Made by a program: the position numbers and the translations under genes. Shown piece by piece: positions 598-31,583 of a stretch of 33,146 bases of DNA. Below the pieces are notes generated by a model. That model saw only the letters and a program-made list of their open reading frames with translations, made no database searches and was not told the DNA's origin. Source of the stretch: Rickettsiales bacterium. Its GTDB lineage: Bacteria > Pseudomonadota > Alphaproteobacteria > Rickettsiales > JALZUV01. Every line of letters begins with the position of its first letter. Position 1 is the first letter of the stretch. The DNA lies in contig JALZUV010000087.1 in NCBI GenBank assembly GCA_023301245.1, positions 1-33,146 of the forward strand, in the 5' to 3' direction.

Positions 598-1707
598 ATG
601 CCGATCAAGAAACGACCAATCAAAATGGGCGGGTCTATTCGGAAAAGAAAGGGCGCGGGGAAACCTGCGCCCAAATCTTTTAAGTTAGCGGGTACAGAGG
701 TAGGCGAAATCCTTCTCGACGCTAACACGACCTACGGCCTAGGTACTGCTCAAATGGGCAGAGACATCAAACCCATAAAACGTATTCGTACAGGGATATT
801 TGCGTTAGACGTAGCGTTAGGTGGTGGTTGGATGCCCTCTCGTGCCGTTATGGCGTACGGGGAAAAATCCACAGGTAAGACGTCCATAGCCATGCGTACA
901 GCGGTAAGGATGCAACGACTATTCCCAGACCAAATCGTCGTATACATCGACGTAGAGCACACATTCGATATGATTTACTTCGTCAAGCTCGGCGGAGATA
1001 AGGACCGTATACTTATTGTGGAGCCAACATCTGGCGAACTAGCTGTGGACATGGCCGATGCTATGATACGCGCAGCCGAAGTCTCTCTCGTCGTTGTGGA
1101 CAGTATAGCTATGATGGTCCCTATGGCGGAAATCGACGCATCAGCCGATGCAAACCAAGTGGGCATACAAGCGCGTCTTATAAACAGATACGTGCGTAAG
1201 ATGACACAAGCCATCATGGCCGAACGTCATCGCGGACACAGGCCCTTGGTATTCAACATCAACCAGTTCCGCATGAAGATCGGCGTATCCTTCGGGGACC
1301 CTAGGACACTTCCGGGAGGCAAGGGATTGGAGTTCTCTACCTCGCAGCAACTAGAGACCCGTATTAAAAAGGATATGGACAAAAACAAAATGGTTATGCG
1401 TAACGAGCATACCGTTGTGGTCACGAAAAACAAAACAGGCGGACGTTATACCGAAGCCAAGTTTAAAACCGTTGTCACGCCCCATAAAGGCATGCCAGAG
1501 GGTTTCATCGACCAGACGCGGACCATCGTTGATTGGGCTAAGCGATACGACTTATGCGAAGGCCAATACTACATCCCTCTATTGGACAAAAAGTTCCGAA
1601 CCTACGATGAAATTACAGCGGAGTTCGTAACGGACCCCGAAGCGTGTGATGCCTACCAAGGCGAGATTATACACGCCATCATGGACGATTGGGGCTTGCT
1701 TCAATAA
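598..1707 (+). CDS. recA: RecA/UvsX-family recombinase
   Basis: TGIFALDVALGGG, Walker A GEKSTGKT, YIDVEH, Walker B LVVVDSI, INQFRMKIGV.FGDP..PGG.GL.F. Confidence 0.96.
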   Translation: MPIKKRPIKMGGSIRKRKGAGKPAPKSFKLAGTEVGEILLDANTTYGLGTAQMGRDIKPIKRIRTGIFALDVALGGGWMPSRAVMAYGEKSTGKTSIAMRTAVRMQRLFPDQIVVYIDVEHTFDMIYFVKLGGDKDRILIVEPTSGELAVDMADAMIRAAEVSLVVVDSIAMMVPMAEIDASADANQVGIQARLINRYVRKMTQAIMAERHRGHRPLVFNINQFRMKIGVSFGDPRTLPGGKGLEFSTSQQLETRIKKDMDKNKMVMRNEHTVVVTKNKTGGRYTEAKFKTVVTPHKGMPEGFIDQTRTIVDWAKRYDLCEGQYYIPLLDKKFRTYDEITAEFVTDPEACDAYQGEIIHAIMDDWGLLQ

Positions 1708-2111
1708 TGACAGGTCATAGAGAAAACCCATGGATGTCCCGCAAACGCAAACGTTTGCAAACCTCCGAAGGGCAACGCCGTTCCCCCAAACAGGAAAAAC
1801 AAACGGCTAAACGTCTGGGGGGACGAACGGTCCATGGCTCGGGGCGGTTCTCTAAGAAAGGGGACGTATACGTGCCAGACCTCCTACGCGTCGAGAGTAA
1901 AACCACACAAGCCAAAAGCTTTAGGGTAACTCTCGACATGTTTGCCAAGGTAGAACGGGCGTCCTTACTCTGTAATGAAATCCCTGCTATGGATATTGAG
2001 TTCCTAGACGATAGGGGCAAACCCACTAAACAATTCGTAGTTCTCGACTTTAGAGACTTCGAAACTCTTATAAAAAGGCTACAAGATGCCGAAGCTCAAA
2101 ATCCCTCGTAA
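1707..2111 (+). CDS. Hjc-like PD-(D/E)XK Holliday junction resolvase
   Basis: E...AKRLGG...GSG....KGDV......VESKTT..SF motif; start taken at the TAATG overlap with recA. Confidence 0.75.
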   Translation: MTGHRENPWMSRKRKRLQTSEGQRRSPKQEKQTAKRLGGRTVHGSGRFSKKGDVYVPDLLRVESKTTQAKSFRVTLDMFAKVERASLLCNEIPAMDIEFLDDRGKPTKQFVVLDFRDFETLIKRLQDAEAQNPS

Positions 2112-2988
2112 CGTAGTTCTAGACACGTTCACACAGCCTTTCTACGATAACTATAGAACCCGCCTTACCAAAGACTACCGCTTCCATGTATCGGATATCA
2201 TACAGACCGAAAAATCTAGGGTGTTCTGCCCTCGCCAAAAGGTATTGTGGTTCACACAACCTCGCGAGGAAATGCCCCGCCGCATCACGCCGGGATTTGA
2301 GTTGTTGTTTGCGCGCGGCAACTTCCTTCACGATTACATAAGAGACCGCTTCGCAGACAGAAGCCCCTACGGACACACGCTTTACGGTTGGTGGAAGTGC
2401 CGAAACTGCAAACACGCCCTACCCGACGCTACCCTAAAGAAAGTAGTCCGTAAGAAATGCCCGTCTTGTAAACGTCGTAACAAGAACAAGATAAACAACA
2501 TATGGCAAAACGAGTTATGGGAATACCAAGAGCTGGACCTAGAACACCCATCCCTGCACATAGTCGGTCACCCAGACATGATACTCTTCAAGGACGGGAA
2601 GTATTACCTATACGAGATAAAATCTATTGATCGCGCTGATATAGACTTCTCGGAATTAGATGCACCCTTAGGCGACCATACATTGCAGGCCAGCTTCTAC
2701 TATTACCTTATGAAGATCGCGGGATACAATGTGTCTCCCTATATACGATACATATATGTTGACCGTAGTAACAGCACATTATTCAAAGGGTCCTTCGTCA
2801 AAGAGTTCACAATAAAGCGCAGCCCGTACTCTCGACTAGAGCCTTTTTTGAAGAAGGTCGCCCAAGCGGGAAAAGGTATTGAAAAAAGAAAGTTGCCACC
2901 GAAGATATGCAAGAGTATAACGGGGTCACGAGCCAAGGAATGTGGTCGTGCCGTAGAATGCTTCGCAAAGAGAACCCGCAATGTATAA
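2086..2988 (+). CDS. Cas4-like PD-(D/E)XK exonuclease with Zn-ribbon insert
   Basis: N-terminal CPR, G...H, GHPD, YEIKS, Q...Y, three C-terminal Cys; CxxC...CxxC insert. Confidence 0.8.
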   Translation: MPKLKIPRNVVLDTFTQPFYDNYRTRLTKDYRFHVSDIIQTEKSRVFCPRQKVLWFTQPREEMPRRITPGFELLFARGNFLHDYIRDRFADRSPYGHTLYGWWKCRNCKHALPDATLKKVVRKKCPSCKRRNKNKINNIWQNELWEYQELDLEHPSLHIVGHPDMILFKDGKYYLYEIKSIDRADIDFSELDAPLGDHTLQASFYYYLMKIAGYNVSPYIRYIYVDRSNSTLFKGSFVKEFTIKRSPYSRLEPFLKKVAQAGKGIEKRKLPPKICKSITGSRAKECGRAVECFAKRTRNV

Positions 2989-3520
2989 AACTTTCGTATG
3001 TATAGACTTCTCCCTACGGTCCACGGGCCTTGCTATCATGGACCACATGGAGAACGTAGCGGCAACACACCGCATCACAACGAAGTCGGGGCTTTCCGAC
3101 CATAAAACCACGGATGAAATCGTCGGGCAGGTATTCGACATTGTAAACGAAAACCCACACATAGGGAGCATAGAGGACACACTCGTCGTTATAGAGGATT
3201 ACGCCATGGGGCGTTTTCAGGGTAAGAGCTTTGCCCGTGCGGAATGCGTAGGCGCGCTGCTATGGAATTTCCGCCAAGACAGCTACCCTATTATAGCTGT
3301 ATCCCCAACAACTCTGAAATCCTATGTCGCGGAAGGCTATACGGCGGGCAAAGCGGGGAAAGCCACCAAGGCTGAGATGCAAGCCGCCGTACACGGTATA
3401 ACAGGGAATTGGTATGCCAACGACGATATAAATGACGCGGTAGCTCTCGGCTTGTTTGCTAACGCCGTATTCACACAGGGAAAAAAGCTCACATACAGAG
3501 CACGTACGCAAATGGTATAA
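2981..3520 (+). CDS. ruvC: RuvC-like Holliday junction resolvase
   Basis: IDFSLRSTG, VVIEDY, SPTTLKSY, G.ATK.EM, DDINDAVAL. Confidence 0.85.
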   Translation: MYKTFVCIDFSLRSTGLAIMDHMENVAATHRITTKSGLSDHKTTDEIVGQVFDIVNENPHIGSIEDTLVVIEDYAMGRFQGKSFARAECVGALLWNFRQDSYPIIAVSPTTLKSYVAEGYTAGKAGKATKAEMQAAVHGITGNWYANDDINDAVALGLFANAVFTQGKKLTYRARTQMV

Positions 3521-3550
3521 TTATTATTCGCAAACGTTTGCAAAACCCGC

Positions 3551-3578
3551 TTGACATTTTATCCCCATGCGTCATTAT
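3551..3578 (+). promoter_or_regulatory. sigma70-like promoter, with palindrome at 3530-3541 just upstream
   Basis: TTGACA-16 nt-CATTAT. Confidence 0.6.
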
Positions 3579-3635
3579 CCATTCATCGGAGCAACATTGC
3601 CCCGTCCAGTAAGCCAACAAACGAGGTAATCCATC

Positions 3636-4814
3636 ATGGCACTTAAAAAAAGCACCGCTAAGAAACCAGCGGCAAAAAAGACTTCTTCTAAGCTGAAAAC
3701 CAGCACCGCGAAGAAAGCAGCCCCCAAAGCAACGAAGAAAACAAACAATAAAGTTGCACGCACGCCGTCATACAAAGTCGGAGATCACGCAACGTTCAAT
3801 GGTTATTCCAGCGACAATGACGACCCGCTCTTCGAAGCTGGCGATACGCTTGCAGTGGTAGGCATCGCCAAAGACAGCGAGAAAAACAAGGTCATCCAAG
3901 TGGTTGCCGTCGAAGACTTCGAAGAGCACATGGCCGACCCGAATGCCAAAGACGGCCCAGACGGCGACGAAGTTCTGCCTTCCGAACTTACGAAGATCAA
4001 GAAAGAGAAAGTCGTCAAAGACCCATACGCTCTCAAAATCACTCACGTCGCCGGTATGGAAGAATATCTCGAAGGTGATTTGGTCAACAACGCCAAGGAG
4101 CTTCAAGACGCCGCTGCGCGTTCCACGTTCTACCTTGGGGGTCTTATCACTGAGCTTTACAAGGACCAGCGTTTCCGCAAGGATTACAAAGGTTACGAAG
4201 ACGAGCTTAACGATGACGAGACACCTCGCAAGGGTACTGGTTGGGCGAAGTTCTGTGAGGAAGAGCTTGGCATGTCCACACGGAAAGCTAGCGACCTTCA
4301 AATGGTCTACATGAACTTCGGTACACTCGAAGACTTCGGTACAGACCAGCTCGACGACATCGGTTGGTCCAAGGCGGTCATCATCGCGCCGTACGTTACC
4401 AACGCCAATGCGGAAGAGGTTATCAAGATTGCCGAGAACACGGGCGTCCGTGACCTTCGTGAGGCAATGAAAACCGATTACTTGGAAGATCGTACGTCTG
4501 GCACAAACCGCGTATCTACGTCTATGAAGCGCATCACGTTCGGCCCATTCAAACTTCTCGAAGACCAAGCGGAAAGCGTCGAAGAAATCTTCAAACGCGC
4601 CCGCAAACAGTTCGGTATCGACGACGCCGACTTGTTGTTCGAAGCCATCGTCACTCAGTGGGCTATGGAAAATCTTGGCGAGACAGCATCCAAAGCTGCC
4701 CGCGCTAAGCGCAACAAGAGGCGTAAAGAGCTTAAGGGCAAAAAGGTTGACGTGTCTGCGTCGGTAGAGCACGAAAAGCGCTTGAACAAGCTTATCGAAA
4801 AGAACGACGTCTAA
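3636..4814 (+). CDS. Probably abundant protein with histone-H1-like K/A/T tail; putative DNA-binding
   Basis: AKKPAAKK tail; GAGGT RBS; strong codon bias; central W..FCEEELGMS.RKA..L..VY HTH-like segment. Confidence 0.7.
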   Translation: MALKKSTAKKPAAKKTSSKLKTSTAKKAAPKATKKTNNKVARTPSYKVGDHATFNGYSSDNDDPLFEAGDTLAVVGIAKDSEKNKVIQVVAVEDFEEHMADPNAKDGPDGDEVLPSELTKIKKEKVVKDPYALKITHVAGMEEYLEGDLVNNAKELQDAAARSTFYLGGLITELYKDQRFRKDYKGYEDELNDDETPRKGTGWAKFCEEELGMSTRKASDLQMVYMNFGTLEDFGTDQLDDIGWSKAVIIAPYVTNANAEEVIKIAENTGVRDLREAMKTDYLEDRTSGTNRVSTSMKRITFGPFKLLEDQAESVEEIFKRARKQFGIDDADLLFEAIVTQWAMENLGETASKAARAKRNKRRKELKGKKVDVSASVEHEKRLNKLIEKNDV

Positions 4815-4839
4815 ATTGTAATAGACATCGTTTAGGGGG

Positions 4840-4869
4840 AGGGTCGGCCTGTGGGGGCTGGCCCTTTTT
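4840..4869 (+). terminator. Rho-independent terminator
   Basis: AGGGTCGGCCT-gtgg-GGGCTGGCCCT followed by TTTT. Confidence 0.85.
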
Positions 4870-4905
4870 CTATTCAAAGGTTGTAAACGTATATGGATAC
4901 GCGTA

Positions 4906-5430
4906 ATGAGTAAGATGACATGGTATCACAAGATACCGCTACCTCAGGGGCGAACAAACGGCAGGGTAAGAAAACGGATAGCCAACTCGTCCAAAGGGAT
5001 AGAGCGCACTATAGCTATAAAGAACCCCCACAACATATACCGTACAAAGAACCTAGGCACCTACCACCACATAGTCGGGGTCCGCGTTAAGTTATTCTCC
5101 CTCAATGACGTTGCCAAATTCTTAGGACTGAACTACCATACACTTAAACGTTGGTACAAAGACGACGCATTGCCCACACCCTTCATCACTTTCAAAGGAC
5201 AGGACCGTTCTCAGCCTATGTGGATAGCGGGTCAGATAAATTGCTTTGTCCGCGTTCTTAACGATATTTACGCTGGTGGTTACGTAAGCGTCCCGTGGCG
5301 GTCCCTACCCAGACATGTAGGTATGATCGAAGCGGGGGCTAAAGAGGCCGTAGACCGCTGGAACCGTAACAACACGGGGGAAAAAGAGGTGGATACTACC
5401 GATAAGTATGGTATCGAATTACACGATTAG
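4906..5430 (+). CDS. MerR/Xis-type HTH protein
   Basis: FSLNDVAKFLGLNYHTLKRWYKDDALP. Confidence 0.7.
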   Translation: MSKMTWYHKIPLPQGRTNGRVRKRIANSSKGIERTIAIKNPHNIYRTKNLGTYHHIVGVRVKLFSLNDVAKFLGLNYHTLKRWYKDDALPTPFITFKGQDRSQPMWIAGQINCFVRVLNDIYAGGYVSVPWRSLPRHVGMIEAGAKEAVDRWNRNNTGEKEVDTTDKYGIELHD

Positions 5431-5445
5431 TATGTCCTACACCTC

Positions 5446-5474
5446 TTGCTTTACCTGCACTATTACCCTATAAC
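5446..5474 (+). promoter_or_regulatory. sigma70-like promoter
   Basis: TTGCTT-17 nt-TATAAC in an intergenic gap. Confidence 0.6.
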
Positions 5475-5515
5475 TAACCATACATAACCCCACCCCAAAC
5501 CAATCGAGCGATATA

Positions 5516-6850
5516 ATGGTTTCCTTACTTAATGCCAAGCGTTACGCTAAATTCCCAGAGAACCCCGACGACTACCCCTACGACAAGTTCGAAAGCCTAC
5601 ACCCAGCCCTACACCGCACAGGGACGTATCGCGATAAAGTCACGGGCATCGAATACTTTATCGACCTAGAGTTAGGCGAATGCGAATGCAAAAACGGTAA
5701 CGCATGGATGTGGGACCGCAAGGGCGAGAAATACTACGCAAACAAATATTGTAAGCATAAGCTTAAGCTCATGGCCTCCGCTATCGACGCGGCCATAGCG
5801 GACAAAGGGTCCCGCTGGGATGACGACGAATTACTGTGGACGTATATCAAAGCGACGGGGACCCGCTACAACGTATGGGAAGTCGTCAGCGCTTTCCACA
5901 AAGAGCTACGCCGCGCTGACTTTCCTAAAGCTTGGTTCTGGGGAAATATCCTAATGACCAAGCGCGGGGGCAAAGGTCTCGCTAAGTACATGCTCAATAT
6001 CATATACGAAGAGACACGCGACCACGAACTAGCCGACAGCCTTATTGTTCTCGCTGGCTTGAAGCAACCGTCACCTAAGCAATTGCACAGACACATCGCA
6101 TGGTTCTGCGCTTCGGTTAAAAAGTGGGAACTAGACCACCGCTACGAGGTATTCGAAAGCGAAATGGCAGGCTACGCGTGGCTCGTTAAGAACTACGGCA
6201 AATCTGTAGCCAAGGGTGGGGAAATCATTGACAGCGCCGAATACCCCAAGCTTCGCAAACGTTTGCTAAGTGGTTACAAAAAGCGAGACAAAGCTAAATT
6301 CCAATCAGGCCTTAAGGGTATACAAAAGATGAAAACCATCGGGGGCCAAAAACTAGACGATCACCGCGTGGATTTATTCAACGAGCTTATGCAGATAGCC
6401 GAAGACTTTGGCGAGGACGATGCAATGCGGGTAGGCGAAGTCGTCATGCGCCGCGTTAATAAAGGCTTTCCTATCGGTTACCATGAAATAAACGCCGTAG
6501 CTGACGCGCTAATGGGCGAGACATACGAAGCGGGCCTATTACCCAAAAAGGACAGAAAACACGCCCTACGCATCCCTTTCAAGTCAATAAAGAGGGGTCA
6601 CTTCCCTAATATACCTCTTTACGCTCAAGATAATCATACGTGGCTCGGCAAGGGCCTGCTGCGTAAGCACCCAGAACAACTTCAACCGAACGTTAAGCAA
6701 AAAAACTTAGACTTCCGTATATGCGGGGCGTACTACGGTGTGTGCTGGCGAACGCTTGCCTATAAGCAATTCCAAGCGATTGATTGCGAGTGGCACGAGG
6801 TTAACTGGCCCAAGCATTTACACAAAACAGTCTCCGACCTCTGGTATTAA
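5516..6850 (+). CDS. SWIM Zn-finger plus MgsA/RarA C-terminal-like helical domain
   Basis: CEC...CKH; VSAFHKELRRAD...A..W; IPLYAQDNHT. Confidence 0.6.
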   Translation: MVSLLNAKRYAKFPENPDDYPYDKFESLHPALHRTGTYRDKVTGIEYFIDLELGECECKNGNAWMWDRKGEKYYANKYCKHKLKLMASAIDAAIADKGSRWDDDELLWTYIKATGTRYNVWEVVSAFHKELRRADFPKAWFWGNILMTKRGGKGLAKYMLNIIYEETRDHELADSLIVLAGLKQPSPKQLHRHIAWFCASVKKWELDHRYEVFESEMAGYAWLVKNYGKSVAKGGEIIDSAEYPKLRKRLLSGYKKRDKAKFQSGLKGIQKMKTIGGQKLDDHRVDLFNELMQIAEDFGEDDAMRVGEVVMRRVNKGFPIGYHEINAVADALMGETYEAGLLPKKDRKHALRIPFKSIKRGHFPNIPLYAQDNHTWLGKGLLRKHPEQLQPNVKQKNLDFRICGAYYGVCWRTLAYKQFQAIDCEWHEVNWPKHLHKTVSDLWY

Positions 6851-6859
6851 GGAAAACAC

Positions 6860-7355: not shown

Positions 7356-7802
7356 ATGCCAATACGTAAAAGAATATCCGACCCCTTCGGCAAAGACGTA
7401 AAAATCGTCGAACGTAATATGAAGTACGGTAAGCCCCCCAAGAAGCCTGCACGACCACGCTGGCGGGGGGAAGCAAAACCACTCGGTGACGCCCTAATGA
7501 AAATCCCGCTTAACCATATCATTAAGCGCAAGGACTACCTTATCTACCTCAAAAAGTATTCCAAGTTATTCGCTATCTACGGCGTAACGGTAGACCTCTA
7601 TCCCTGCTACGATAACCTCACGCTTGACGATGCCCACAAGGTATGCACGGGCGTCATGGTTACCCTACACAGACCTATGGTCCACAAATCTCTTTACCCA
7701 AAAATGATCCTAAAAGCTTCCACGGAAAAAGGCATAAGACAAGAGCGATGGTTAGGGACCGTACTTGATTGGATTGAGACCGAAGTTTACGGTAAATTAT
7801 AA
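7356..7802 (+). CDS. Hypothetical basic protein (MPIRKR N-terminus)
   Basis: AGGAG RBS; ORF. Confidence 0.8.
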   Translation: MPIRKRISDPFGKDVKIVERNMKYGKPPKKPARPRWRGEAKPLGDALMKIPLNHIIKRKDYLIYLKKYSKLFAIYGVTVDLYPCYDNLTLDDAHKVCTGVMVTLHRPMVHKSLYPKMILKASTEKGIRQERWLGTVLDWIETEVYGKL

Positions 7803-8776
7803 TGACCAAACGCGCCCGAAGAAAATTAGTAAAGGTTGATGTAGCTGCCGTCCGTGCAGCCAAAAAGCAAGACCTTATAGAAACAGCCGTCGTAGATATA
7901 TTGTCCAACTTTCCTATGGGTTCCCTACGTATACGGTTCTCCGTTAAGACGGTACGCGCTTACATCTGCATACCTAGGGTGCATGACGTACAGCCTATAA
8001 ACACCTTGGCTAGAAAATTTATATATCATGCCACACACGCGGGGACTTCACTGCGCAATCGCAAGGCTGACCCCCCGTCAAGGGTATTGCACATACTAGG
8101 CGAAAACCCTTCCGACAAACTTTCCGAAGCGTTTGGCGATCTGTGGCGTCGTTCTCGTGTAACGGGTACGAATACCTATTGGGTGGGGTCATTTAACTCC
8201 GCTATAGCCGAAGCCCGCAAAGCCCGCAGCGATGATATGCTACGCCCCGAAATTGACGCCACAATGGCCCGCGCCATTAAAGCCTTTACGGACCTACCTC
8301 GCGGACCTTACATGGAGCCAGCGGCCTTAAAAGATACTATAGCGGACCTTACCGCAGCGATTAACCCACCCCTTAAAACCGCGAATTACTTGGAGCGGTA
8401 CGAAGGCATCGGCGGCGACCACAATATCTACATTGTAACGAAACCTTTCGCAGTAGCGGGCAGGCACCACAAGGTCGGAGAGACCTTAGACTTCGCAAAT
8501 GCAGGCGCGGCTAACCGTTACCTACAAGGCGGTGTACTAACACGCGTGGACAACACACAAGTAACTACGGACGATGTACGAAACGCGTCGACCTTCCTAG
8601 CCAGAAAACGAGTCCAGCACCACGCCGCTAGACGTAAGGCTCCCGACAAACCCTTGAGCTTAAGCGAGATAAAGGCTAAAGCGGGTATAACGCCCAGACC
8701 TAAAGTCCCGCCCAAAACTATCCATAGCGCAGAGACGTTCACAGATACTAACGATTGGAACCTAAACGATGACTAA
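7802..8776 (+). CDS. Hypothetical protein
   Basis: 324-aa ORF, TAATG coupling. Confidence 0.8.
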   Translation: MTKRARRKLVKVDVAAVRAAKKQDLIETAVVDILSNFPMGSLRIRFSVKTVRAYICIPRVHDVQPINTLARKFIYHATHAGTSLRNRKADPPSRVLHILGENPSDKLSEAFGDLWRRSRVTGTNTYWVGSFNSAIAEARKARSDDMLRPEIDATMARAIKAFTDLPRGPYMEPAALKDTIADLTAAINPPLKTANYLERYEGIGGDHNIYIVTKPFAVAGRHHKVGETLDFANAGAANRYLQGGVLTRVDNTQVTTDDVRNASTFLARKRVQHHAARRKAPDKPLSLSEIKAKAGITPRPKVPPKTIHSAETFTDTNDWNLNDD

Positions 8777-10769: not shown

Positions 10770-11171
10770 ATGGCAGCAAAACGTAAACTCGTGAAAACGA
10801 AGACAAAAGAAAAAACAGCACCTAACAATGATGCGCCCGCAACTATCCGAAAGGCACCCCGTATCACTCACGATATGTCACCTTCGTATAGCGGCACCTC
10901 GTCAACAATCACGTCCCGCATGTCTAGGACGCCGATTGACTTCTCTCGGTTCAATACAATCGCCGATGCGAAATTGACGGCTCGTGACCGTTCCGCTATC
11001 AATGACCTTGCGTCAACTTACGGAAAGCGACAGTTCCAACGAGGCAACTTGGATACTGGTATCCTACGCCGACTTGGAGCGCGGGGCATTATTGCGCACG
11101 TCTCTGGGAGCGACGTTTCCCTAGAGACACGCTTCAAGCTTACCCCTCTGGGTATTCGGGAAGCTGCGTAG
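10770..11171 (+). CDS. Basic-tailed winged-helix-like protein; probable paralog of 26108-26701
   Basis: AGGAG RBS; upstream TTGCAC-17-TTATAT; LDTGILRRLGARGII...FKLTPLG. Confidence 0.7.
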   Translation: MAAKRKLVKTKTKEKTAPNNDAPATIRKAPRITHDMSPSYSGTSSTITSRMSRTPIDFSRFNTIADAKLTARDRSAINDLASTYGKRQFQRGNLDTGILRRLGARGIIAHVSGSDVSLETRFKLTPLGIREAA

Positions 11172-11652: not shown

Positions 11653-11920
11653 GCAATCTATACGAGAAGCTAGGACACCTACGACAGGCGTACTAGCACC
11701 CTCCGTAATGCGTTTTGTTTTCGAGGGTAACGGTTACGAGTATGAAGCTTTCGGGGAAACAGCCTCTATGGCCATGGACACGCTAGGTGACAAGGTATTC
11801 AACCTAGGAAACTCGGGCGACCTTATGACAGCCACTGATGCCCACGGCAACAAGACTATATTCGAATTTCACGATATGGGCATAGATATATTCGAGGATG
11901 GGCATAGTTATGAAGCGTAG
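11645..11920 (+). CDS. Hypothetical protein, paralog of next gene
   Basis: Shares the LGDKVFNL domain; ATG at 11645. Confidence 0.7.
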   Translation: MRRQSIREARTPTTGVLAPSVMRFVFEGNGYEYEAFGETASMAMDTLGDKVFNLGNSGDLMTATDAHGNKTIFEFHDMGIDIFEDGHSYEA

Positions 11921-12377
11921 ACGCCGCCCCATAAGGAAGGTCAAGTATCACAACGACCCATCACGTATAGACGAGGCTAACCAGCTCCTATCGTGCTCAC
12001 AGCACCAAATGCCTGATTGCTCTTTGTGCAAGGCTATACGGGAACGTCGTACGCTAACGGGCGAGGAGTATTTAGCGCTAAGTGAGCTTGATACACTCTT
12101 CGTACCAGACAAACTAACCCCACCCCTGATAAAGTACACTTTCTCAGGCAGCGGTCTCACCTTTAAGGCTAAGGGCTTTACACCTATCCATGGTGCAGAG
12201 CGCTTAGGCGACAAGGTATTCAACCTCGCATGGACGGGGGAGACCTTTATATGCACGGACCCCGACCAAAACGAAATAGTATTGGAATTCCAAGCCAGCA
12301 ACTCCGTGGGGGATGACGATACCATAATCTACCACAGCCCGCCCAAAGAAAAAGAGAAAGACGACGAAGGATGGTAA
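11910..12377 (+). CDS. Hypothetical protein, paralog of previous gene
   Basis: LGDKVFNL domain plus N-terminal Cys cluster. Confidence 0.7.
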   Translation: MKRRRRPIRKVKYHNDPSRIDEANQLLSCSQHQMPDCSLCKAIRERRTLTGEEYLALSELDTLFVPDKLTPPLIKYTFSGSGLTFKAKGFTPIHGAERLGDKVFNLAWTGETFICTDPDQNEIVLEFQASNSVGDDDTIIYHSPPKEKEKDDEGW

Positions 12378-14674: not shown

Positions 14675-15032
14675 ACGTGTAATCCCACGGGACCTATTCA
14701 ACGAAGCCAAGCTACTAAAGTGCCTAGGCATGATAGCCCTTATTGCACACGAGAAGGGACTACCTAATTCGTGGACGTTAGAGCACAGGAACGGATGGGA
14801 AGCATTCACTATACAGCAGGACAACTCAGATGGTTCCCTATATTGTGGGAACGTTTTTCTGCGACATACCCCAACAGCTAAGACGTTGTTATTTAACACG
14901 CCGTTAAACTCTAGGGAACCTCACCCGCTCTATATCATTAGACAGAGCGACGACGAAGTTATTGAGGTTTTCGCTATGGATGGCACCCTATCCTCACAAT
15001 TCATCCTGCACTTAATGGGGGTCACAGCCTAA
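14664..15032 (+). CDS. Conserved phage hypothetical protein
   Basis: YKRVIPRDLFNEAKLLKC...TPLNSR.P.PL; GAGGA RBS. Confidence 0.8.
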   Translation: MAYKRVIPRDLFNEAKLLKCLGMIALIAHEKGLPNSWTLEHRNGWEAFTIQQDNSDGSLYCGNVFLRHTPTAKTLLFNTPLNSREPHPLYIIRQSDDEVIEVFAMDGTLSSQFILHLMGVTA

Positions 15033-15235
15033 TGGCCATACGCCGCCGCCTAACGGGTACGGGTGAGGTTACGGCTTACGCGGGTTCATCCCCCGTCCAA
15101 TCGTTTAAAAGTCTAGCGGAGGCTATACGTGTACTCTCGCCGCGCTATAACTGCTCTTTCCCCATGGTCACACTGCTGCTAAAGAACAAGCACGGAAAAA
15201 CGTTGCACACACTATCATGGACACCCTACTTCTGA
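15032..15235 (+). CDS. Small hypothetical protein (MAIRRR N-terminus)
   Basis: TAATG coupling. Confidence 0.65.
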   Translation: MAIRRRLTGTGEVTAYAGSSPVQSFKSLAEAIRVLSPRYNCSFPMVTLLLKNKHGKTLHTLSWTPYF

Positions 15236-15441
15236 TGCCCATACGCAAACGTTTCGGCGACACACACAAGTACACACTCTGGGAATGCGATAATGAAATA
15301 GGACCTTGCAACACCCAAGCCGAAGCGGCTGACATGGCGGTAGCAGACCACTCAAGGGCTGGCCGACCTTTTCAGATGCGGGACGCAAATGGGAATATAG
15401 CATGGGCCTTTGTTACGAAAACAATGGATAGACGAAAATGA
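15235..15441 (+). CDS. Small hypothetical protein (MPIRKR N-terminus)
   Basis: TGATG coupling places the start at 15235. Confidence 0.65.
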   Translation: MPIRKRFGDTHKYTLWECDNEIGPCNTQAEAADMAVADHSRAGRPFQMRDANGNIAWAFVTKTMDRRK

Positions 15442-19509: not shown

Positions 19510-19875
19510 TTGCCCATACGAAAAAGACATACAACCAAACAACCCTTTAGGACCGACAAACGCAATATGCGTCAGTTGACGGATTGGCTTTCGGTACAAT
19601 CGGGAAAGGTACTCACCTTCGTTGAATACGACGGGTTCCTATTACACTTCGGCATCGAAGAGCGGTGGACTTACCACGCAACACACCTAGACGGGTCGGA
19701 AACACCCGCTAAAGAGGTACTGCCTTACGAGTTCAATGGTCGCATGCTGCCTTGCGGTGGTTACCCCAAATACTTTGCTTTCACTTGTTACCCGTGCCAA
19801 CTTACGGACGACGACGCCGTTTACTTACTAAAGAACGGCCTAACACAAAAGCGCCATGAAAGGTTCGAGCAATGA
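19510..19875 (+). CDS. Hypothetical protein (MPIRKR N-terminus, TTG start)
   Basis: ORF starting 4 nt after the upstream stop. Confidence 0.7.
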   Translation: MPIRKRHTTKQPFRTDKRNMRQLTDWLSVQSGKVLTFVEYDGFLLHFGIEERWTYHATHLDGSETPAKEVLPYEFNGRMLPCGGYPKYFAFTCYPCQLTDDDAVYLLKNGLTQKRHERFEQ

Positions 19876-24890: not shown

Positions 24891-24919
24891 CCCACACAAC
24901 CCAAGCATAGGAGACTACA

Positions 24920-25501: not shown

Positions 25502-25510
25502 GAGATCATC

Positions 25511-26107: not shown

Positions 26108-26701
26108 ATGCCTATCACAACTAAAACGACTAAAGCCATCCCTGCGACTAAAACGACAAAAGCCGCACCTGCGACTAAAACACCCGCTGCGACTAAAACA
26201 GCACCTGCGACAAAAGCCGCAACACCAGCCGTACCAAGCGGCCCTAGCACAAGCGAATTGCGCCAAGCTGCAAACGCTCTAGCGGGTAAAGCCGTATCAG
26301 CGTTCTATAGCGGCTCTAGCTTGCCATTTAAAGCCGCAACGCAACGTCTTAGCGCGGTTAACCCTAACAACGCAAAAAAGCCAAGCGTTCGCCAAGCCGC
26401 CGCAATCGCCGCCGCGTTTACATACGGCGTCGGTTCAATCTCTAAAACGGGTATTTTTACGAACGGCACGTTCAATATACCGTCAACCCTCGTAAACCCT
26501 AAAGCGAAAGCGGGCGAAACAATGCTTGCACAAATCGAAAGCGGCGCGCTCGGCAATATGCTCGGCAATGCTATCGACCTGCACAGCGACGGAACGCGCT
26601 ACGTATTCAATATCGCTAACATCCGCGCGCATTACTTGCCGCTACTCGATAGCGACGTCCGTTCCAACGCTATCAAAGCAATCGACGCTATCGCCGCCTA
26701 A
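26108..26701 (+). CDS. H1-like PATK-repeat tailed protein; probable paralog of 10770-11171
   Basis: CTGCGAC(T/A)AAA repeats at 26142, 26169, 26187, 26205; CGGAGCA RBS; own terminator. Confidence 0.8.
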   Translation: MPITTKTTKAIPATKTTKAAPATKTPAATKTAPATKAATPAVPSGPSTSELRQAANALAGKAVSAFYSGSSLPFKAATQRLSAVNPNNAKKPSVRQAAAIAAAFTYGVGSISKTGIFTNGTFNIPSTLVNPKAKAGETMLAQIESGALGNMLGNAIDLHSDGTRYVFNIANIRAHYLPLLDSDVRSNAIKAIDAIAA

Positions 26702-26726
26702 CTAGCAAACGTTTGCTAAGCATACA

Positions 26727-26758
26727 GCCTCGCCCATAATCGGGCGGGGTTTTTCTTT
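26727..26758 (+). terminator. Rho-independent terminator
   Basis: GCCTCGCCC-ataatc-GGGCGGGGT followed by TTTTCTTT. Confidence 0.85.
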
Positions 26759-27164
26759 GCCTACATATACACCCCTATATATAGCCCCTCCCATATAAGC
26801 CCCATACAGCACGGTTTCTACAACTTCCATACGTCGGGGGCCTAACACGTACCCCCTACACTATAGCCATCCTAGCGGCCCTCAGCACGTCAACCCCCTA
26901 TTTTCTAAAAACCAGCACTTTTTACCTCTCCCCCCACCTCTCTGTAAGACGCCAAATTACTCGGGCAAAAAATTGTGCAAAGATCGAATGGCCTTCTAAA
27001 AATTATTTCCGAAAAAATGTAGAACTCGTAAGACCTCTCCGTAAGAAGTTTACGTAAGTAGAATTATATATGGAAGATTATATATGATAGCCAATATAGC
27101 CTTGCTCACATAAGAGCTATCGGGTAAGCTCGGGGGACACAAACATGTAAACACGGAGCACACC

Positions 27165-27287
27165 ATGTGGGGATTAATAACCACCGTAATACTCGTAGCA
27201 CTACCACTAGCCGCTGCGCTGGTAGGTATATGGGCAGTATTGGTCGGGGTAGCTGCCGCACGTAACTCAGACCATCATAATATATAG
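27165..27287 (+). CDS. 40-aa hydrophobic peptide (not in ORF track)
   Basis: CGGAGCA RBS; MWGLITTVILVALPLAAALVGIWAVLVGVAAARNSDHHNI. Confidence 0.65.
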   Translation: MWGLITTVILVALPLAAALVGIWAVLVGVAAARNSDHHNI

Positions 27288-27315
27288 AAGCATATAAAAA
27301 GGAATGGAGCACACC

Positions 27316-28209
27316 ATGCAACCCATAGAATACCTGATTAAAAATACGAAGGACATGATCGAACGAGACTTAAATGCTCTCGGTGCTCAGGGCTGGAACC
27401 TCGTAGCCGTAGAAAGCTACAAGCGGATAGCGTATATATTTAGTCGTCCAGTGTCGAACACTATGTGTGAAAATTCGACGCGTCCTACTGCTACCAATGA
27501 GATCGCTTCGCGCTCCACTGTGGATGTCCCCGAAAATACGGCGTCTACCGACCTTATTATAGCGTTGCTGCGCGCCGAGGAGAGCGATGTTAAAGCGGAA
27601 ATGACATCGCTAGGAATTACATACAAATCTATGCGCAAACAAGCGATGCCCCATACGTGGGTCGTCTTTGGCTGCTCGAATATACCGAACCCGTTGCCTT
27701 CCTATATTAAGAGGCGGGTTTTGCAAACGTCTGCGGCGGCTTCAAGTCTGCAAGCAGAATTCGCTGATATCGACGAGCCGATTACACTGGTAGCCGATTA
27801 TACGCACCCTGCTATAGGGAAATCGACACGGGTGCAGGTATCGGAACTCGTGCGAAGACACGGCATACAATATACAAGCTGGGACGTGCATGCGACCACA
27901 CAGAATATGCACTTTCATATGTGTAAAAAAATTCCCGACGAACTACCGCCATGGCTTACGCCATTGACTGCCGTACCCGCACCTAGACAACGTGCCGCTG
28001 CCAGACCAGACGACATGAACCAGCCCTGCGACCTTATGGTAACGCAGCACCATATGCTTGGGCGTACACATGTAGCGATAGGCCAAACGATAACCACCCT
28101 CGGTATTAAATACACAGGCTTCCGCATGGACGACGCTGGACGTAACGCGATATTCGAAGGGTGCACAAACTTGCCCGACACCTTGCCTATCTGGCTTCAC
28201 CGCATATAA
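27316..28209 (+). CDS. DUF4177-like N-terminal domain plus three internal repeats
   Basis: EY...LNALGAQGWNLVAV...FSRP; 3x GI.Y...C..(I/L)P..LP.(W/Y). Confidence 0.7.
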   Translation: MQPIEYLIKNTKDMIERDLNALGAQGWNLVAVESYKRIAYIFSRPVSNTMCENSTRPTATNEIASRSTVDVPENTASTDLIIALLRAEESDVKAEMTSLGITYKSMRKQAMPHTWVVFGCSNIPNPLPSYIKRRVLQTSAAASSLQAEFADIDEPITLVADYTHPAIGKSTRVQVSELVRRHGIQYTSWDVHATTQNMHFHMCKKIPDELPPWLTPLTAVPAPRQRAAARPDDMNQPCDLMVTQHHMLGRTHVAIGQTITTLGIKYTGFRMDDAGRNAIFEGCTNLPDTLPIWLHRI

Positions 28210-28274
28210 GTAACAAAGCCTCGGTCAAAACACAGAACTGACCGAGGTTAGCAAACGTTTGCAAAGGACACACA

Positions 28275-28523
28275 ATGAGCAACACGCCGTGGCTTGATTT
28301 ATCGGAGCCGTTACGAAAGCGATTGAAGGTTGCCTACACAATGAACGGGTCCTTCGTACACAATACAGAGGGGTGTAGAGCATTGCATGATTTACTGATT
28401 ACACTTACCTCTCGTATTGACGAGCGCAATGAGATCATCCTTAAACTAGAGGCGGAAAATGCTGCGCTTAAGAAAGCGGCTGCTGCCAAGGGCCTTAAAA
28501 AACGATGGCACATATTCTCTTAG
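28275..28523 (+). CDS. Small coiled-coil protein
   Basis: AAGGA RBS right after palindrome 28251. Confidence 0.7.
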   Translation: MSNTPWLDLSEPLRKRLKVAYTMNGSFVHNTEGCRALHDLLITLTSRIDERNEIILKLEAENAALKKAAAAKGLKKRWHIFS

Positions 28524-28568
28524 CCTGCTATACAAAACTCGCAAACGTTTGCTAACTAAGGACTTCCT

Positions 28569-28790
28569 ATGTCAGACGCCAGAACCAGTACCTCCGCCCT
28601 CATTCGCACTATTGCGAACCAGCTAGACGAACCAGATAATTGCGTACTGATGGCTCACCCGAGAAGCATACTACTCGAAGCCCAACACGCAGGGGCCATA
28701 CCGCTAACGGTTGACCGCTATAGCACGGACTTACAGAGGCATATACGTAATTTGCAGGAAGCTATAATAGGCTTAAAGGGTGCACTATGA
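28569..28790 (+). CDS. Hypothetical protein
   Basis: AAGGA RBS after palindrome 28541. Confidence 0.7.
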   Translation: MSDARTSTSALIRTIANQLDEPDNCVLMAHPRSILLEAQHAGAIPLTVDRYSTDLQRHIRNLQEAIIGLKGAL

Positions 28791-29617
28791 CTACTTATTT
28801 TCCTATGTGGGATGAACACGCAAGGTGGTTCACAAAGAGCGGAGGGGCAATACCCGAACGGAAGTATCAAGTCGTACGCGAAGATCGGACCGAACTAACC
28901 ATAATGAAGCACCCCGATTTCAAGACGGGAGCCAACACACCAGCGGACATACCTTATAGGTATTTAGAAGAGCTACCGCACGATACGTTTTACGTTGAAG
29001 GGCCGGAGAAAGACCCGATTGGTTTCTTAGTCGAACGCATGCCAGACGACAGCTTGCAGCTCACCGTCGCAGATGACGAGCACGTATCCTTCTTGCACCT
29101 ATCATCCAACGCACGAAACATATCAGACGCCATAGCATCCATGGCCGATACCAAAGTGGTCCCTTCGGAATTCGGGAAGACTTACACCATCGACGGCGTG
29201 ACGTGCTTCCTTTCCATTATACGTAAAGGTGAGCACACGGCCATCGTAACTAACCCCAAGTTCGGCAAACGCTACATCCGTCTATACCTCTACGCCCTAG
29301 TGTTGCTTTTACTGTCGTTACAGGGGATTAAAAGCACACAACGTGTACGGCAGGGGGTAAAGATCAGCGCAGCGCCAGTATTCACTGATTATAAGGGGGA
29401 TATTGAGACAATAAGAACCATATGGTCTGGGTATTCAGAATATGCCGCCGCCGACGATGCCCAAAGGTTTGCAATAAGAGCACGAAGACGGGACCACGGC
29501 GTAAAAGGGCATTGGAGAACTTACAAAGACGGAAAGATAGTTTTCATCGCTGCACACAGGCGCGGAGATAAAAAACTAGGCACCGTCACATCCCACGTAG
29601 TTATAAAGGACAAATAA
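28787..29617 (+). CDS. Phage protein with C-terminal H-x-x-x-GHWR...RGD..LG motif
   Basis: RRDHGVKGHWRTYKDGKIVFIAAHRRGDKKLG, a recurrent basic phage motif. Confidence 0.75.
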   Translation: MTTYFPMWDEHARWFTKSGGAIPERKYQVVREDRTELTIMKHPDFKTGANTPADIPYRYLEELPHDTFYVEGPEKDPIGFLVERMPDDSLQLTVADDEHVSFLHLSSNARNISDAIASMADTKVVPSEFGKTYTIDGVTCFLSIIRKGEHTAIVTNPKFGKRYIRLYLYALVLLLLSLQGIKSTQRVRQGVKISAAPVFTDYKGDIETIRTIWSGYSEYAAADDAQRFAIRARRRDHGVKGHWRTYKDGKIVFIAAHRRGDKKLGTVTSHVVIKDK

Positions 29618-29618
29618 T

Positions 29619-30083
29619 ATGCTGCCATTAGACATACAAGAATTCGGAGAGCACGAAGATGCCCACCACATGACTTCGGAAGAGGAAAAAGATTATTATT
29701 CAGGCGTCGGGAAGTTGGTAATCTTCATCATACAGAATACCAAAGACAACTTTGAGTTCGACGTACTCGAAAGTAGCGGATGCGCGCGATGGCTGTGTGA
29801 GGGCCTAGGAGCGGACTACGCCCTTACGGAAGAATGGTTCGGAAGCCTCGCTTGGTATAAGGAAGGCACAACCTGCGCCATTGAGGATATATCCGTGAAT
29901 TATATACGCGGCGACGGCTGGGCGACAGACGACGATGAAGAATGGGACTACGGGGCAAGACACAAAACAGCCAAGCCATTAGCCTTGTTACTTTACAAGA
30001 TCGAAATAATTGCATGGAGACGTAAGTGCGACTTCCTACGCCTCGCTAAAAAGGCCTTAAATATATTATTGCGTAACACGTAA
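29619..30083 (+). CDS. Hypothetical protein
   Basis: AAGGA RBS. Confidence 0.7.
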   Translation: MLPLDIQEFGEHEDAHHMTSEEEKDYYSGVGKLVIFIIQNTKDNFEFDVLESSGCARWLCEGLGADYALTEEWFGSLAWYKEGTTCAIEDISVNYIRGDGWATDDDEEWDYGARHKTAKPLALLLYKIEIIAWRRKCDFLRLAKKALNILLRNT

Positions 30084-30102
30084 AACCTGCTACTATACAT
30101 CT

Positions 30103-30445
30103 GGGCGGTATAACGGGTACGACATCTCCCAGATGTATATAATCTCTCCGATACCCGTGGACTTTCGATGTACCGCCCACTTAACACTTTGCAGGCTTTC
30201 CCTTCTTCCATCACACTGCGCCCCGATGGGGGTAGGGAAAAGCTTGCGCAGCCCTTCACCATACGCTATATAATAACCGAGCGGTGCGTCGTTACCATCT
30301 GCAACGGGAAGGCCTTCCTAGCAGAGATCGCGAGCGTCGTCTTTGGGTAGACACAAGTGCAACCAGCAACAGAACCCTCTGAAACGCCTGCAACGAACCT
30401 AGTGATATTGCTATATCTGGGGGGCGTGCGGGGCCGCTTATTTAA
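30103..30445 (+). ncRNA. Candidate structured non-coding RNA(s)
   Basis: Promoter TTGCGT-16-TACTAT (30069-30096); several long helices with G-U pairs on the + strand; no credible ORF. Confidence 0.5.
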
Positions 30446-30464
30446 CATTGTCGGAGCGACGAAC

Positions 30465-30662
30465 ATGAACTACACAGTAATAGCATTATCCTCAGCCTGC
30501 ATACTCGTAGGTATCTGCGGACTTATATCTCGGGACAGGGATATAAAAAACATACCCAACATGTATAAAGAGACCCTTGTTCTTTGGAACATATTCGCCA
30601 AGATGGCATACGTAGTTATGCTTATTTCCGCAGGCCTGATTGCACGGGAATTATTGAAATGA
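30465..30662 (+). CDS. Small two-TM membrane protein
   Basis: CGGAGCG RBS; two hydrophobic stretches. Confidence 0.7.
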   Translation: MNYTVIALSSACILVGICGLISRDRDIKNIPNMYKETLVLWNIFAKMAYVVMLISAGLIARELLK

Positions 30663-30715
30663 CGGTAGGTTTTAAAACAGCAGCGTTATACACTGTGGAG
30701 GTGAAGTCATAAACC

Positions 30716-31144
30716 GTGCCAATCCGTAAACGAATAAAGACGACTAAACCCCGTAAGCTTAAGCGAAAACCTAGTACCCTTAAACGCAAACAGGTTTTAG
30801 ACAACGGCATATGTGTGGAAACGCGCTTACGTATAAAAGTATTGCTCGGGGCTTACACGTATGAGTTATGTGATTGGGACTACATGCACGACAGTCAATT
30901 CGACAAGCTATGTCTACTAGTCAATCTTGATCGACCAACGCACAGGCCAGACCTAGACAAATGGTTTAAAGAGAATTTCAGCCCGCACACGGGACAGTGG
31001 ATACACAACTTCCCAGAGCTTGGTAAACTAGACGTGCTTTGCAAACGTCTGCAAAGTTACAATATCGTTTTCAAGGACCGAGACAAATCCCTGAAAGTCG
31101 CCAAGAAATTAAAGAAAAAGAAAAAAAGAAAGCGCATCGTATGA
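30716..31144 (+). CDS. Stand-alone NAD-dependent ligase domain-Ia-like protein with basic tails (MPIRKR, GTG start)
   Basis: AYTYE...D.YMHDSQFDKL resembles LigA YY..D.P.ISDAEYD.L; GGAGG RBS. Confidence 0.6.
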   Translation: MPIRKRIKTTKPRKLKRKPSTLKRKQVLDNGICVETRLRIKVLLGAYTYELCDWDYMHDSQFDKLCLLVNLDRPTHRPDLDKWFKENFSPHTGQWIHNFPELGKLDVLCKRLQSYNIVFKDRDKSLKVAKKLKKKKKRKRIV

Positions 31145-31293
31145 CCATCCTCTTTATGCTGCTATCCCGCCTTGCTATAAACAGGGTAGTCGACGGTAAC
31201 TTGCGGTTCCGATCAAGAAAAGATTTCAAATACTTCTGCATTGTAGTTTGGCTATTCTTGCTGCCACGCGGCCTATTTATAGTAATTGCTTAA
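31141..31293 (+). CDS. Small hydrophobic protein
   Basis: ATGA overlap. Confidence 0.5.
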   Translation: MTILFMLLSRLAINRVVDGNLRFRSRKDFKYFCIVVWLFLLPRGLFIVIA

Positions 31294-31295
31294 CC

Positions 31296-31583
31296 ATGGC
31301 AATTCGTAGCAGGTTCCTAAAGGTAAGCGAGTTAGAGATGGGCATGCTCTACTGGCTTTACGTACCCAAGTCTGACCAGCAGACACGCACCCTAGCCACA
31401 ATGGCCGAGGCATACAAAGCCAATGAGGGTTTACTGCGTGGACACTTGATTAAACTTGCCATGGAGGGTCATATATATGAGGTCACAGAGCCGCACGAGC
31501 ACTGGGTAATCACACGGTCTACAAAGATACGGGTCAAACAACATATGGGCAATAGCTGGGGGTCTAAAAATGAAAAGACGTAG
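31296..31583 (+). CDS. Small winged-helix-like protein (MAIRSR N-terminus)
   Basis: TLATMAEAY...LRGHLIKLAMEGHI...W.IT. Confidence 0.55.
   Translation: MAIRSRFLKVSELEMGMLYWLYVPKSDQQTRTLATMAEAYKANEGLLRGHLIKLAMEGHIYEVTEPHEHWVITRSTKIRVKQHMGNSWGSKNEKT

Follow-up and report, generated by a model that had tools for sequence, protein, structure and literature searches.

The contig JALZUV010000087.1 of the Rickettsiales bacterium assembly GCA_023301245.1, analyzed here over its whole length of 33,146 nucleotides (nt; hereafter the window), is phage DNA, and together with a second contig of the same bin it encodes 13 proteins that open with versions of one hexapeptide, M-[P/A]-I-[R/K]-[K/R]-R (hereafter the tag). 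To judge from the sequences, the tag is a short linear motif selected at the peptide level, and it appears as the sharpest form of a lineage-wide habit of placing clusters of Lys and Arg at N- or C-termini. With regards to its role, we tentatively favor an electrostatic tether to a polyanion, most probably DNA.

A hexapeptide at the start of 13 phage proteins

A six-frame scan of the window with the pattern x-[PA]-I-[RK]-[RKS]-R gave nine matches, all on the + strand, seven of which fell on start codons and two of which did not (5628, ATC; 31206, GTT). The seven were those N-termini that had been listed in an initial annotation of this DNA, here confirmed on ATG codons at 598, 7356, 15032, 15235 and 31296, on TTG at 19510 and on GTG at 30716. 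Over the complete bin (2,172,413 bases in 318 contigs, the window being the whole of one contig, C87), there were 96 six-frame matches, 17 of them on start codons. Thirteen of these 17 had at least 67 open codons downstream, and all 13 were located either on C87 (seven) or on the 61.7 kb contig C44 (six, with starts at 2846, 6905, 13147, 14281, 55988 and 58292), which is the remainder of the same phage; the other four were followed by only 10–28 codons. The remaining 2.08 Mb of the bin held no start-codon tag on open frames of at least 40 codons. The 127 + strand proteins of the phage (27,466 residues) hence contained 13 N-terminal tags, corresponding to about a tenth of the proteome, and no internal copy. 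The number of N-terminal tags expected was 0.0012 from composition, 0.019 when residues 2–11 were shuffled within each protein (maximum two in 20,000 shuffles) and 0.09 upon column shuffling (maximum three). The enrichment, for which a comparison with shuffled or composition-matched N-termini had been proposed, thus holds, with 13 tags observed against 0.02–0.09 expected. A relaxed pattern, in which position 3 could also be V or L, position 5 S, Q, N or T and position 6 K, returned the same 13 proteins, all of them having Ile as the third and Arg as the sixth residue, and three consecutive basic residues were found in 12 of the 13, the exception being the R-S-R of the tag at 31296.

The initial annotation had ascribed the tag to selection on a portable peptide and not to duplication of DNA, and our comparisons argue for the same conclusion. 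Both the codons and the start codons vary between tag copies, as had been claimed, and in pairwise comparisons of tag codons 2–6 the identity was 0.76 at codon positions 1 and 2 vs. 0.28 at position 3, with 0.28 over the 30 nt upstream of the tags and 0.29 over the 30 nt downstream. Third positions and flanks are thereby at background, and on orthologues of RecA, the SSB-like and the Zn-ribbon protein in Agrobacterium phage JP1 and uncultured relatives (see below) the tag is kept while the adjoining 40–80 residues diverge. A repeated DNA cassette, such as a promoter, ribosome-binding site and start module spread by recombination, was rejected because similarity was absent from flanks and third positions (0.28–0.29). 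The synonymous codons used in tags matched genome usage (A or T at 38 of 65 third positions, with 34.5 expected), and predicted mRNA folding between −20 and +40 gave −8.00 kcal/mol for tagged and −7.65 kcal/mol for untagged genes (p=0.74). There was also, in line with the earlier observation, no visible kinship downstream of the tags, with no pair of tagged proteins matching at E≤1e-3 in BLASTP.

Among the seven carriers in the window (all + strand), the first is RecA (gene 598–1707), with the tag MPIKKR at 598–615, a further I-R-K-R copy at residues 14–17 and matches to Pfam PF00154 from residue 55 (E 7.1e-53) and to TIGR02012 from residue 46. The tag MPIRKR at 7356–7373 opens a protein of 148 amino acids (aa; gene 7356–7802) without assigned function, preceded by AGGAG, for which no match was found in Pfam, PHROG or NCBIfam, no homologue in ten related genomes and no usable match in the ESM Atlas. 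Two small proteins, both without any homologue found, follow each other directly, one of 67 aa having MAIRRR at 15032–15049 (gene 15032–15235) with its start overlapping the upstream stop as TAATG, the other of 68 aa having MPIRKR at 15235–15252 (gene 15235–15441) with an overlap of the form TGATG. A TTG start followed by PIRKR at 19510–19527 begins a 121-aa protein (gene 19510–19875) and is the first start codon, six codons past an in-frame stop and 5 nt past the end of the upstream gene. At 30716–30733, GTG followed by PIRKR starts a protein of 142 aa (gene 30716–31144), with GGAGGTGA upstream and one codon past an in-frame stop; this protein also has a polybasic C-terminal tail (...KKLKKKKKRKRIV, 31100–31141) and is thus basic at both ends. 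The weaker tag MAIRSR at 31296–31313, of a 95-aa protein (gene 31296–31583), lies 3 nt past an upstream stop and has no clear Shine–Dalgarno sequence. In the stretch 31197–31298, thirty codons upstream of that start and two codons past a TAA, an in-frame V-P-I-K-K-R lacking a start codon (GTT, 31206–31223, + strand) is possibly the decayed start of the same gene. Taken over all seven, the starts are credible, with AGGAG- or AGGAA-like sequences upstream of several and with the stop overlaps at 15032 and 15235. When 17 proteins (the 13 tagged and four others) were searched against NCBIfam, RecA alone was recognized, and a PDB profile search with the single-stranded DNA-binding (SSB)-like protein gave no usable match (best E 0.16).

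Relatives of the phage and the basic ends of its proteins

The six tagged proteins on C44, the occurrence of the tag in a cultured phage and the basic tails found at both termini across the proteome all go beyond what the initial annotation had described. In gene order and proteins the closest match to the phage was the cultured Agrobacterium phage JP1 (96.9 kb; capsid protein 43% and RecA 42% identical), followed at greater distance by the Rhodobacter RcF phages, the Rhizobium phages L338C and RHph_I4, Pseudomonas PaMx31 and Stenotrophomonas DLP_3. Strict tags at starts of open reading frames (ORFs) numbered five in JP1 and, in relatives from IMG/VR, five in V3, two in V4 (three relaxed), two in V2 and one in the partial record V1 (three relaxed). 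The coding-sequence start chosen by the depositors of JP1 coincided with the tag start codon in four of its five strict cases and lay one codon upstream in the fifth. No strict tag was found on the coding strands of RcDurkin, L338C, PaMx31, RHph_I4 and DLP_3 (about 503 kb), and the Rhodobacter RcF phages have degenerate forms. An IMG/VR scan for a Shine–Dalgarno sequence followed by tag codons gave at least 119 stretches and, with a single match in each contig among the matches listed, was uninformative as to the spread of the tag. A sister phage, having a RecA that is 89% identical (P0002), was sought in two metagenome scans, neither of which found anything.

For RecA we compared 120 database homologues, where a start of the form M[AP][IVL] was seen in 46 of the 61 closest (33 being M[AP]I) vs. 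one of the 59 more distant ones. In a quick maximum-likelihood tree of 112 of the 120, built without the first 60 residues, 43 of 44 tagged sequences fell within one clade of 60 (support of 95 in the Shimodaira–Hasegawa-like approximate likelihood-ratio test), and several of its untagged entries come from gene calls that can be seen to be truncated. In IMG/VR, a search with a single RecA sequence gave no relative, whereas an alignment query did. A second, internal x-I-[KR][KR]R was present in the N-terminal extension of 21 of the 61 closest homologues. The RecA tag appears to belong to a longer conserved region, predicted to be unstructured. Through the homologues P0001–P0061, this extension runs in the order tag, G-A-G-K-P-A-P-S and G-G-I-[KR][KR]-R-[TS]-x-L-P.

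Other carriers gave a similar picture. In the Zn-ribbon family (C44, 14281) all five homologues started with M[PA]I and the next ~60 residues were unalignable, while the SSB-like family and the protein upstream of RecA had drifting versions of the tag at their starts. The DUF1643 carrier matched its Pfam family from residue 49, and in RecA and DUF1643 the tag stands 48–54 residues ahead of the Pfam starts; the PaMx31 homologue of the DUF1643 protein begins where a 35-residue extension ends. A comparison with orthologues of other phages, proposed earlier as a check on whether they lack the extension, thus came out in favor of an add-on, in that the tag tips extensions of 30–85 residues that more distant homologues either lack or begin differently. 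Residues 7–40 of the tagged proteins were 63% polar or disorder-promoting and 28% hydrophobic. In tblastn searches of ten related genomes, eight of the 13 tagged proteins were without a homologue, six of these being among the seven in the window; one of the eight, at C44 6905, had a weak BLASTP match to the tagged JP1 protein gp002 (E 1e-5).

In the Rhizobium phages RHph_I4 and L338C, RecA and the small protein encoded upstream of it have an N-proximal motif of their own, V-R-[TA]-R-x-R, in common with the SSB-like protein and with two or more other ORFs. The recurrence of this motif suggests that there may be lineage-specific versions of the same device.

Beyond the strict tag, the proteome of the phage had 48 occurrences of [IVL][RK][RK][RK], with 9.3 expected. 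Their density per 1000 residues was 9.2 in the first 20 residues, 5.2 in a C-terminal zone of 15 residues and 0.71 in the interior, with corresponding values of 4.1, 3.4 and 0.27 in JP1. Host ORFs of at least 150 aa (n=1474) gave 0.51, 0.63 and 0.28, and phage ORFs of the same size (n=67) gave 6.7, 7.0 and 0.75. A basic triplet within 20 residues of either end was found in 34 of 120 phage proteins; by module this was seen in seven of 10 packaging or head proteins (including the portal and a putative scaffold), 13 of 31 proteins of replication or recombination, three of 17 neck or tail proteins and eight of 47 small ORFs, with packaging, head and replication taken together (20 of 41) exceeding neck and tail (3 of 17; Fisher p=0.039). 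Ile preceded the basic triplet in 13 of 27 N-terminal cases vs. one of 10 C-terminal and three of 35 interior ones. Relaxed N-terminal forms were carried by the terminase, the DNA polymerase and the AAA ATPase, and C-terminal basic tails by, among others, these three, the ParB-like nuclease and a clade-specific protein of 528 aa; these tails are kept in orthologues of the clade.

The 528-aa protein (C44, 7860–9446) is the best-conserved clade-specific protein, with 51–57% identity in JP1, V2–V4 and RcDurkin but no counterpart in the Rhizobium phages. It had no match in Pfam (E≤0.01), PHROG (E≤1e-5) or NCBIfam (E≤0.01) and is annotated as a glycosyltransferase in JP1. In the phage studied here it is basic at both ends, and the JP1 copy ends with ...PAIRKRIKVRK.

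In the window, the broader class of basic N-termini (all + strand) includes a 392-aa protein starting with MALKKSTAKKPAAKK... (3636–3680), a 324-aa protein starting with MTKRARRKLVK... (7802–7846), a 133-aa protein starting with MAAKRKLVKTKTK... (10770–10814) and a 155-aa protein starting with MKRRRRPIRKVK... (11910–11954), in the last of which P-I-R-K is present but displaced by five residues. Low-complexity repeats of Lys, Thr, Ala and Pro resembling histone H1 were also noted at 26108–26701 (MPITTKTTKAIPATKTTKAAPATK..., encoded in part by tandem repeats at 26120–26215) and at 3636–4814 (MALKKSTAKKPAAKKTSSK...), a pair that adds to the basic, probably DNA-coating proteins of the phage.

What the tag may bind

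If the tag acts as a tether, its exposed cluster of three basic residues and the amino terminus set free upon removal of Met would bind a polyanion, and the DNA concerned could be the host nucleoid or replicating phage DNA. Proteins of replication, recombination and packaging, together with small early proteins, would thereby be concentrated at sites where phage DNA is handled, each of them free to work at the end of its 30–85-residue leash. That DNA is the partner and tethering the benefit is what we infer, as this would fit with the composition of the tag, its terminal and leash-like position and the bias towards DNA-handling modules. There is precedent in that the KRRR core of the adenovirus peptide pVIc binds to DNA and slides on it, as exposed clusters resembling nuclear localization signals (NLSs) are expected to do likewise, with the rate of sliding being doubled by a free N-terminal amine (PMC4797294), and in that the terminal protein of phi29 is directed to the nucleoid by its N-terminal domain, which binds DNA non-specifically (PMC4974454). 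Some observations nevertheless speak against a simple tether to DNA. Non-specific DNA binding should need no fixed [P/A]-Ile cap, yet all 13 proteins keep it, and this strict cap is not accounted for by simple electrostatics; together with the bias for Ile at N-terminal triplets, it gives the tag more the look of a docking motif that a protein recognizes. RecA and SSB-like proteins, moreover, bind DNA unaided, and eight of the 13 tagged proteins, for which a link to DNA would be conjectural, lack a homologue in the ten genomes searched by tblastn. Three basic residues also bind DNA weakly, having a Kd of about 0.2 to over 1 µM at 2 mM NaCl (PMC4797294).

A candidate for a protein that could read the tag is encoded immediately upstream of RecA. 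At 2–592 (+ strand), the window contains the C-terminal 196 aa of a 335-aa acidic protein with its gene beginning on C44 at 61259, and the D/E-rich protein that had been noted at 1–592 is real. It consists of a basic N-tail, a core of ~100 aa, acidic linkers of (EEDEA)n and three helix-extended-helix (HeH)-like modules; its matches to SAP and Rho_N were weak and sub-threshold, and the core had no recognizable SSB fold by sequence in a PDB profile search (best E 0.61). A long acidic form (264–335 aa, 27–35% Asp+Glu) is found in this phage, JP1 (28%), V1–V4 and RcDurkin, and a short orthologue (104–139 aa, at most 20% Asp+Glu) in RHph_I4, L338C and PaMx31 (these three 117–131 aa, without the acidic part) and in other IMG/VR loci. 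The long form occurred in four of 80 IMG/VR loci. The acidic proteins themselves open with peptides resembling the tag, namely MAIRKAGRP, MAIKRSGKP, MALKKKP and MARKPAK. The earlier idea of an acidic hub on which the tag docks is favored by one correlation, with the long acidic form confined to the tag-bearing clade, but it is weakened by resting on that single clade, for which reason the co-occurrence of tag and acidic form counts as one evolutionary event, and by relatives that carry Arg-rich N-terminal motifs without having the acidic extension.

In its explicit form, the tag would bind this poly-acidic, multi-module protein and so recruit its clients into an assembly for replication and recombination, which is the main rival to a DNA tether and one that we consider rather doubtful. 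It would agree with the finding that the four IMG/VR loci having the long acidic form are identical to those having a tagged RecA, with the repeated modules, which would make the protein multivalent, with its tag-like start, by which it could self-associate, and with the fixed [P/A]-Ile cap, which suits recognition by a protein. It agrees less well with RcDurkin, which has the acidic form and no canonical tag on the coding strand, with the Rhizobium phages, where RecA, the SSB-like protein and the short orthologue have V-R-T-R-x-R although the acidic extension is lacking, and with the numbers of tags (13, 5, 5, 2–3 and 2 across similar scaffolds), which do not track the length or acidity of the scaffold. 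More doubtful still is an elaboration of this scheme into an address code, where the SAP/HeH-like poly-acidic protein, multivalent and itself tagged, would read the tag and together with DNA build a membrane-less compartment for replication, recombination and packaging. The cap could alternatively be recognized as a free N-terminus, with a [P/A]-Ile-basic end being read by some factor of the host or the phage (a protease adaptor, a modifying enzyme or a chaperone, for example) that would set the lifetime or activity of the protein. Methionine aminopeptidase allows excision of Met when Pro or Ala is at position 2, tags of the strict class occur at the very N-terminus and never internally, and [P/A]-Ile is conserved at least as well as the basic part (in all five Zn-ribbon homologues and as M[AP]I in 33 of 61 RecA sequences). 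We nonetheless hold such recognition to be unlikely, with an internal x-I-[KR][KR]R in the RecA extension of 21 of the 61 closest homologues, with PAIRKRIKVRK at the end of the JP1 member of the 528-aa family, with basic tails equally enriched at C-termini and with searches of the phage proteins revealing neither a candidate enzyme nor a candidate adaptor.

Loading into the virion, a role that had been suggested by analogy with phage T4, would make the tag a counterpart of the capsid-targeting sequence (CTS) of T4 IPIII or of the packaging signal of P1 DarB, with its carriers packed into the head and injected. In T4 and P1 an N-terminal peptide is indeed enough for loading into the capsid (PMC9024508), the tagged proteins at C44 13147 and 14281 are encoded between terminase and portal, and basic tails are found in seven of 10 packaging or head proteins. 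The analogy fits poorly, however, and T4-like head loading is quite unlikely here, because carriers such as RecA, the SSB-like protein and DUF1643, or in relaxed form the terminase, DNA polymerase and AAA ATPase, are unexpected contents of a virion, and because no residue is conserved at positions 7–13, where a maturation cleavage site would fall (the top residue occurring in at most four of 13 proteins); about 10% of the proteome would also be a large load for one head. Very unlikely, in our judgement, is a tether to anionic membrane lipids that would place replication or assembly at the inner membrane: an aliphatic residue with a basic cluster at a chain end would have the make-up of a minimal peripheral anchor, and many carriers are oligomeric, which would add avidity, but the tag is followed by no amphipathic helix and by residues 7–40 of the polar composition given above. 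An effect at the start site, whereby codons or nascent peptide would improve initiation or early elongation of translation, would explain why the strict class occupies the first six codons; considering the random third positions (0.28), the codon usage equal to that of the genome, the equal folding of tagged and untagged genes, the enrichment of basic clusters at C-termini and the internal copy, we regard it as highly improbable. Chance or wrong start calls, finally, have a negligible probability. Gene calls were crude, and the TTG and GTG starts as well as that at 31296 are supported by their position only, but the shuffle statistics, the lack of matches on frames of at least 40 codons in the other 2.08 Mb and on the coding strands of the five related phages, and the JP1 starts placed by its depositors on the tag codon in four of five cases all argue against chance.

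Two further candidates were also rejected. A Sec or Tat signal peptide was discarded since the residues after the tag, inspected by eye, are polar or charged and form no hydrophobic core, the only case resembling the Tat consensus S/T-R-R-x-F-L-K being the protein at 31296 (MAIRSRFLKV), in which the core is absent. A Ser/Thr kinase site after the tag, seen by eye in about half of 22 tags where roughly a third would be expected, was unconvincing.

In T4 and T7, replisome proteins are recruited by acidic C-terminal tails of gp32 and gp2.5, disordered regions that contact basic surfaces of several replication and recombination partners; the candidate parallel here is the acidic protein encoded beside RecA. 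The partners in T4 and T7 differ, however, in using folded basic patches and in having no terminal peptide in common. Considering the known terminal peptides, the adenovirus pVIc sled (GVQSLKRRRCF) is likewise a viral chain-end peptide in which three or four basic residues follow an aliphatic one and which can be moved between cargos (PMC4797294, PMC4740752), and the enhancement of its sliding by a free N-terminal amine fits with the extreme N-terminal position of the tag (PMC4797294). Unlike the tag, pVIc is a single C-terminal peptide that proteolysis sets free and that subsequently becomes linked to the protease (PMC4797294), whereas the tag is fused genetically to at least 13 proteins, mostly N-terminally, and has a fixed [P/A]-Ile cap that the sled papers describe as unnecessary. 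The phi29 terminal protein has, similarly, a basic N-terminal region of NLS-like composition by which a phage replication protein sets the machinery on the nucleoid; it differs in being a helical domain of ~73 residues in one protein family (PMC4974454), the tag being a hexapeptide common to unrelated proteins. With the T4 IPIII CTS and the P1 DarB signal (PMC9024508) the tag shares being a short, portable N-terminal peptide on unrelated proteins of one phage, here 13. Those signals are, on the other hand, found on proteins internal to the head and are removed by the prohead protease in T4, and the P1 Dar proteins have no consensus according to that source (PMC9024508), while the carriers of the tag are mostly proteins of replication or recombination, with a clear consensus and no cleavage motif after it.

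Terminal peptides that are portable and found on unrelated viral proteins are, in other words, already known as a kind of element. What is new is a sharp consensus on about a tenth of a phage proteome, kept across a clade of alphaproteobacterial siphoviruses and tied to basic end-tails. Of the few portable viral sorting peptides known, namely the adenovirus sled and the head-loading signals of T4 and P1, none is a clear, clade-conserved consensus on approximately one-tenth of the proteome. No description of the motif was found in the literature on capsid targeting sequences or polybasic phage N-termini, supplementary files being outside the scope of that search; no paper was found on Agrobacterium phage JP1, and the paper on the Rhodobacter phages contains neither ‘N-terminal’ nor ‘mass spectrometry’. 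If the tag does tether proteins to DNA or to a scaffold, a mid-sized phage could concentrate its DNA machinery even without a shell-like compartment, the tag would offer a six-residue handle for directing cargo to the site of phage DNA, and it would serve as a flag, readable from sequence only, for functionally linked ORFans such as the eight tagged proteins for which tblastn gave no homologue in the ten related genomes. The address code, if true, would mean that a phage of ordinary size encodes a client–scaffold system in its genome, with six portable residues serving as the import tag. As the cultured phage JP1 has the tag and the Rhodobacter RcF phages have degenerate forms of it, the question is directly testable.

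The phage genome and neighboring genes

C87 and C44 close into a circular siphovirus genome of about 94,661 bp. The end of C44 and the start of C87 overlap by 57 nt within the 15-nt tandem repeat that encodes (EEDEA)n (window 1–57), and the end of C87 (33048–33146) overlaps with the start of C44 by 99 nt; since the 57-nt join falls inside the tandem repeat, the repeat number at that junction is uncertain. The RpoB encoded in the bin shares about 64–70% identity with those of many Alphaproteobacteria. Nearly all genes of C87 are on the + strand, and besides many small ORFs without assigned function it encodes RecA, two Holliday-junction resolvases, a Cas4-like exonuclease and an endolysin. C44 contains genes for the ParB-like nuclease, terminase, portal, protease, major capsid protein and a lambda-like tail with a J-like protein of 3135 aa, as well as for replication (AAA ATPase, DnaB-like helicase, DNA polymerase, primase and helicase).

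Directly after RecA, the window contains at 1707–3520 a match to phrog_2002 (Holliday junction resolvase), a Cas4-like PD-(D/E)XK exonuclease and a RuvC-like resolvase, making a recombination cassette with two distinct junction resolvases, as is likewise the case in JP1. A tRNA-Met (CAT) gene is located amid small ORFs at 32068–32144. On C44, at 45400–48494, a classical AAA ATPase (PF00004) is encoded 665 nt (one ORF of 212 aa) upstream of a DUF1257 protein, which is then followed by a 66-aa ORF, and this AAA ATPase is kept in all ten relatives compared.

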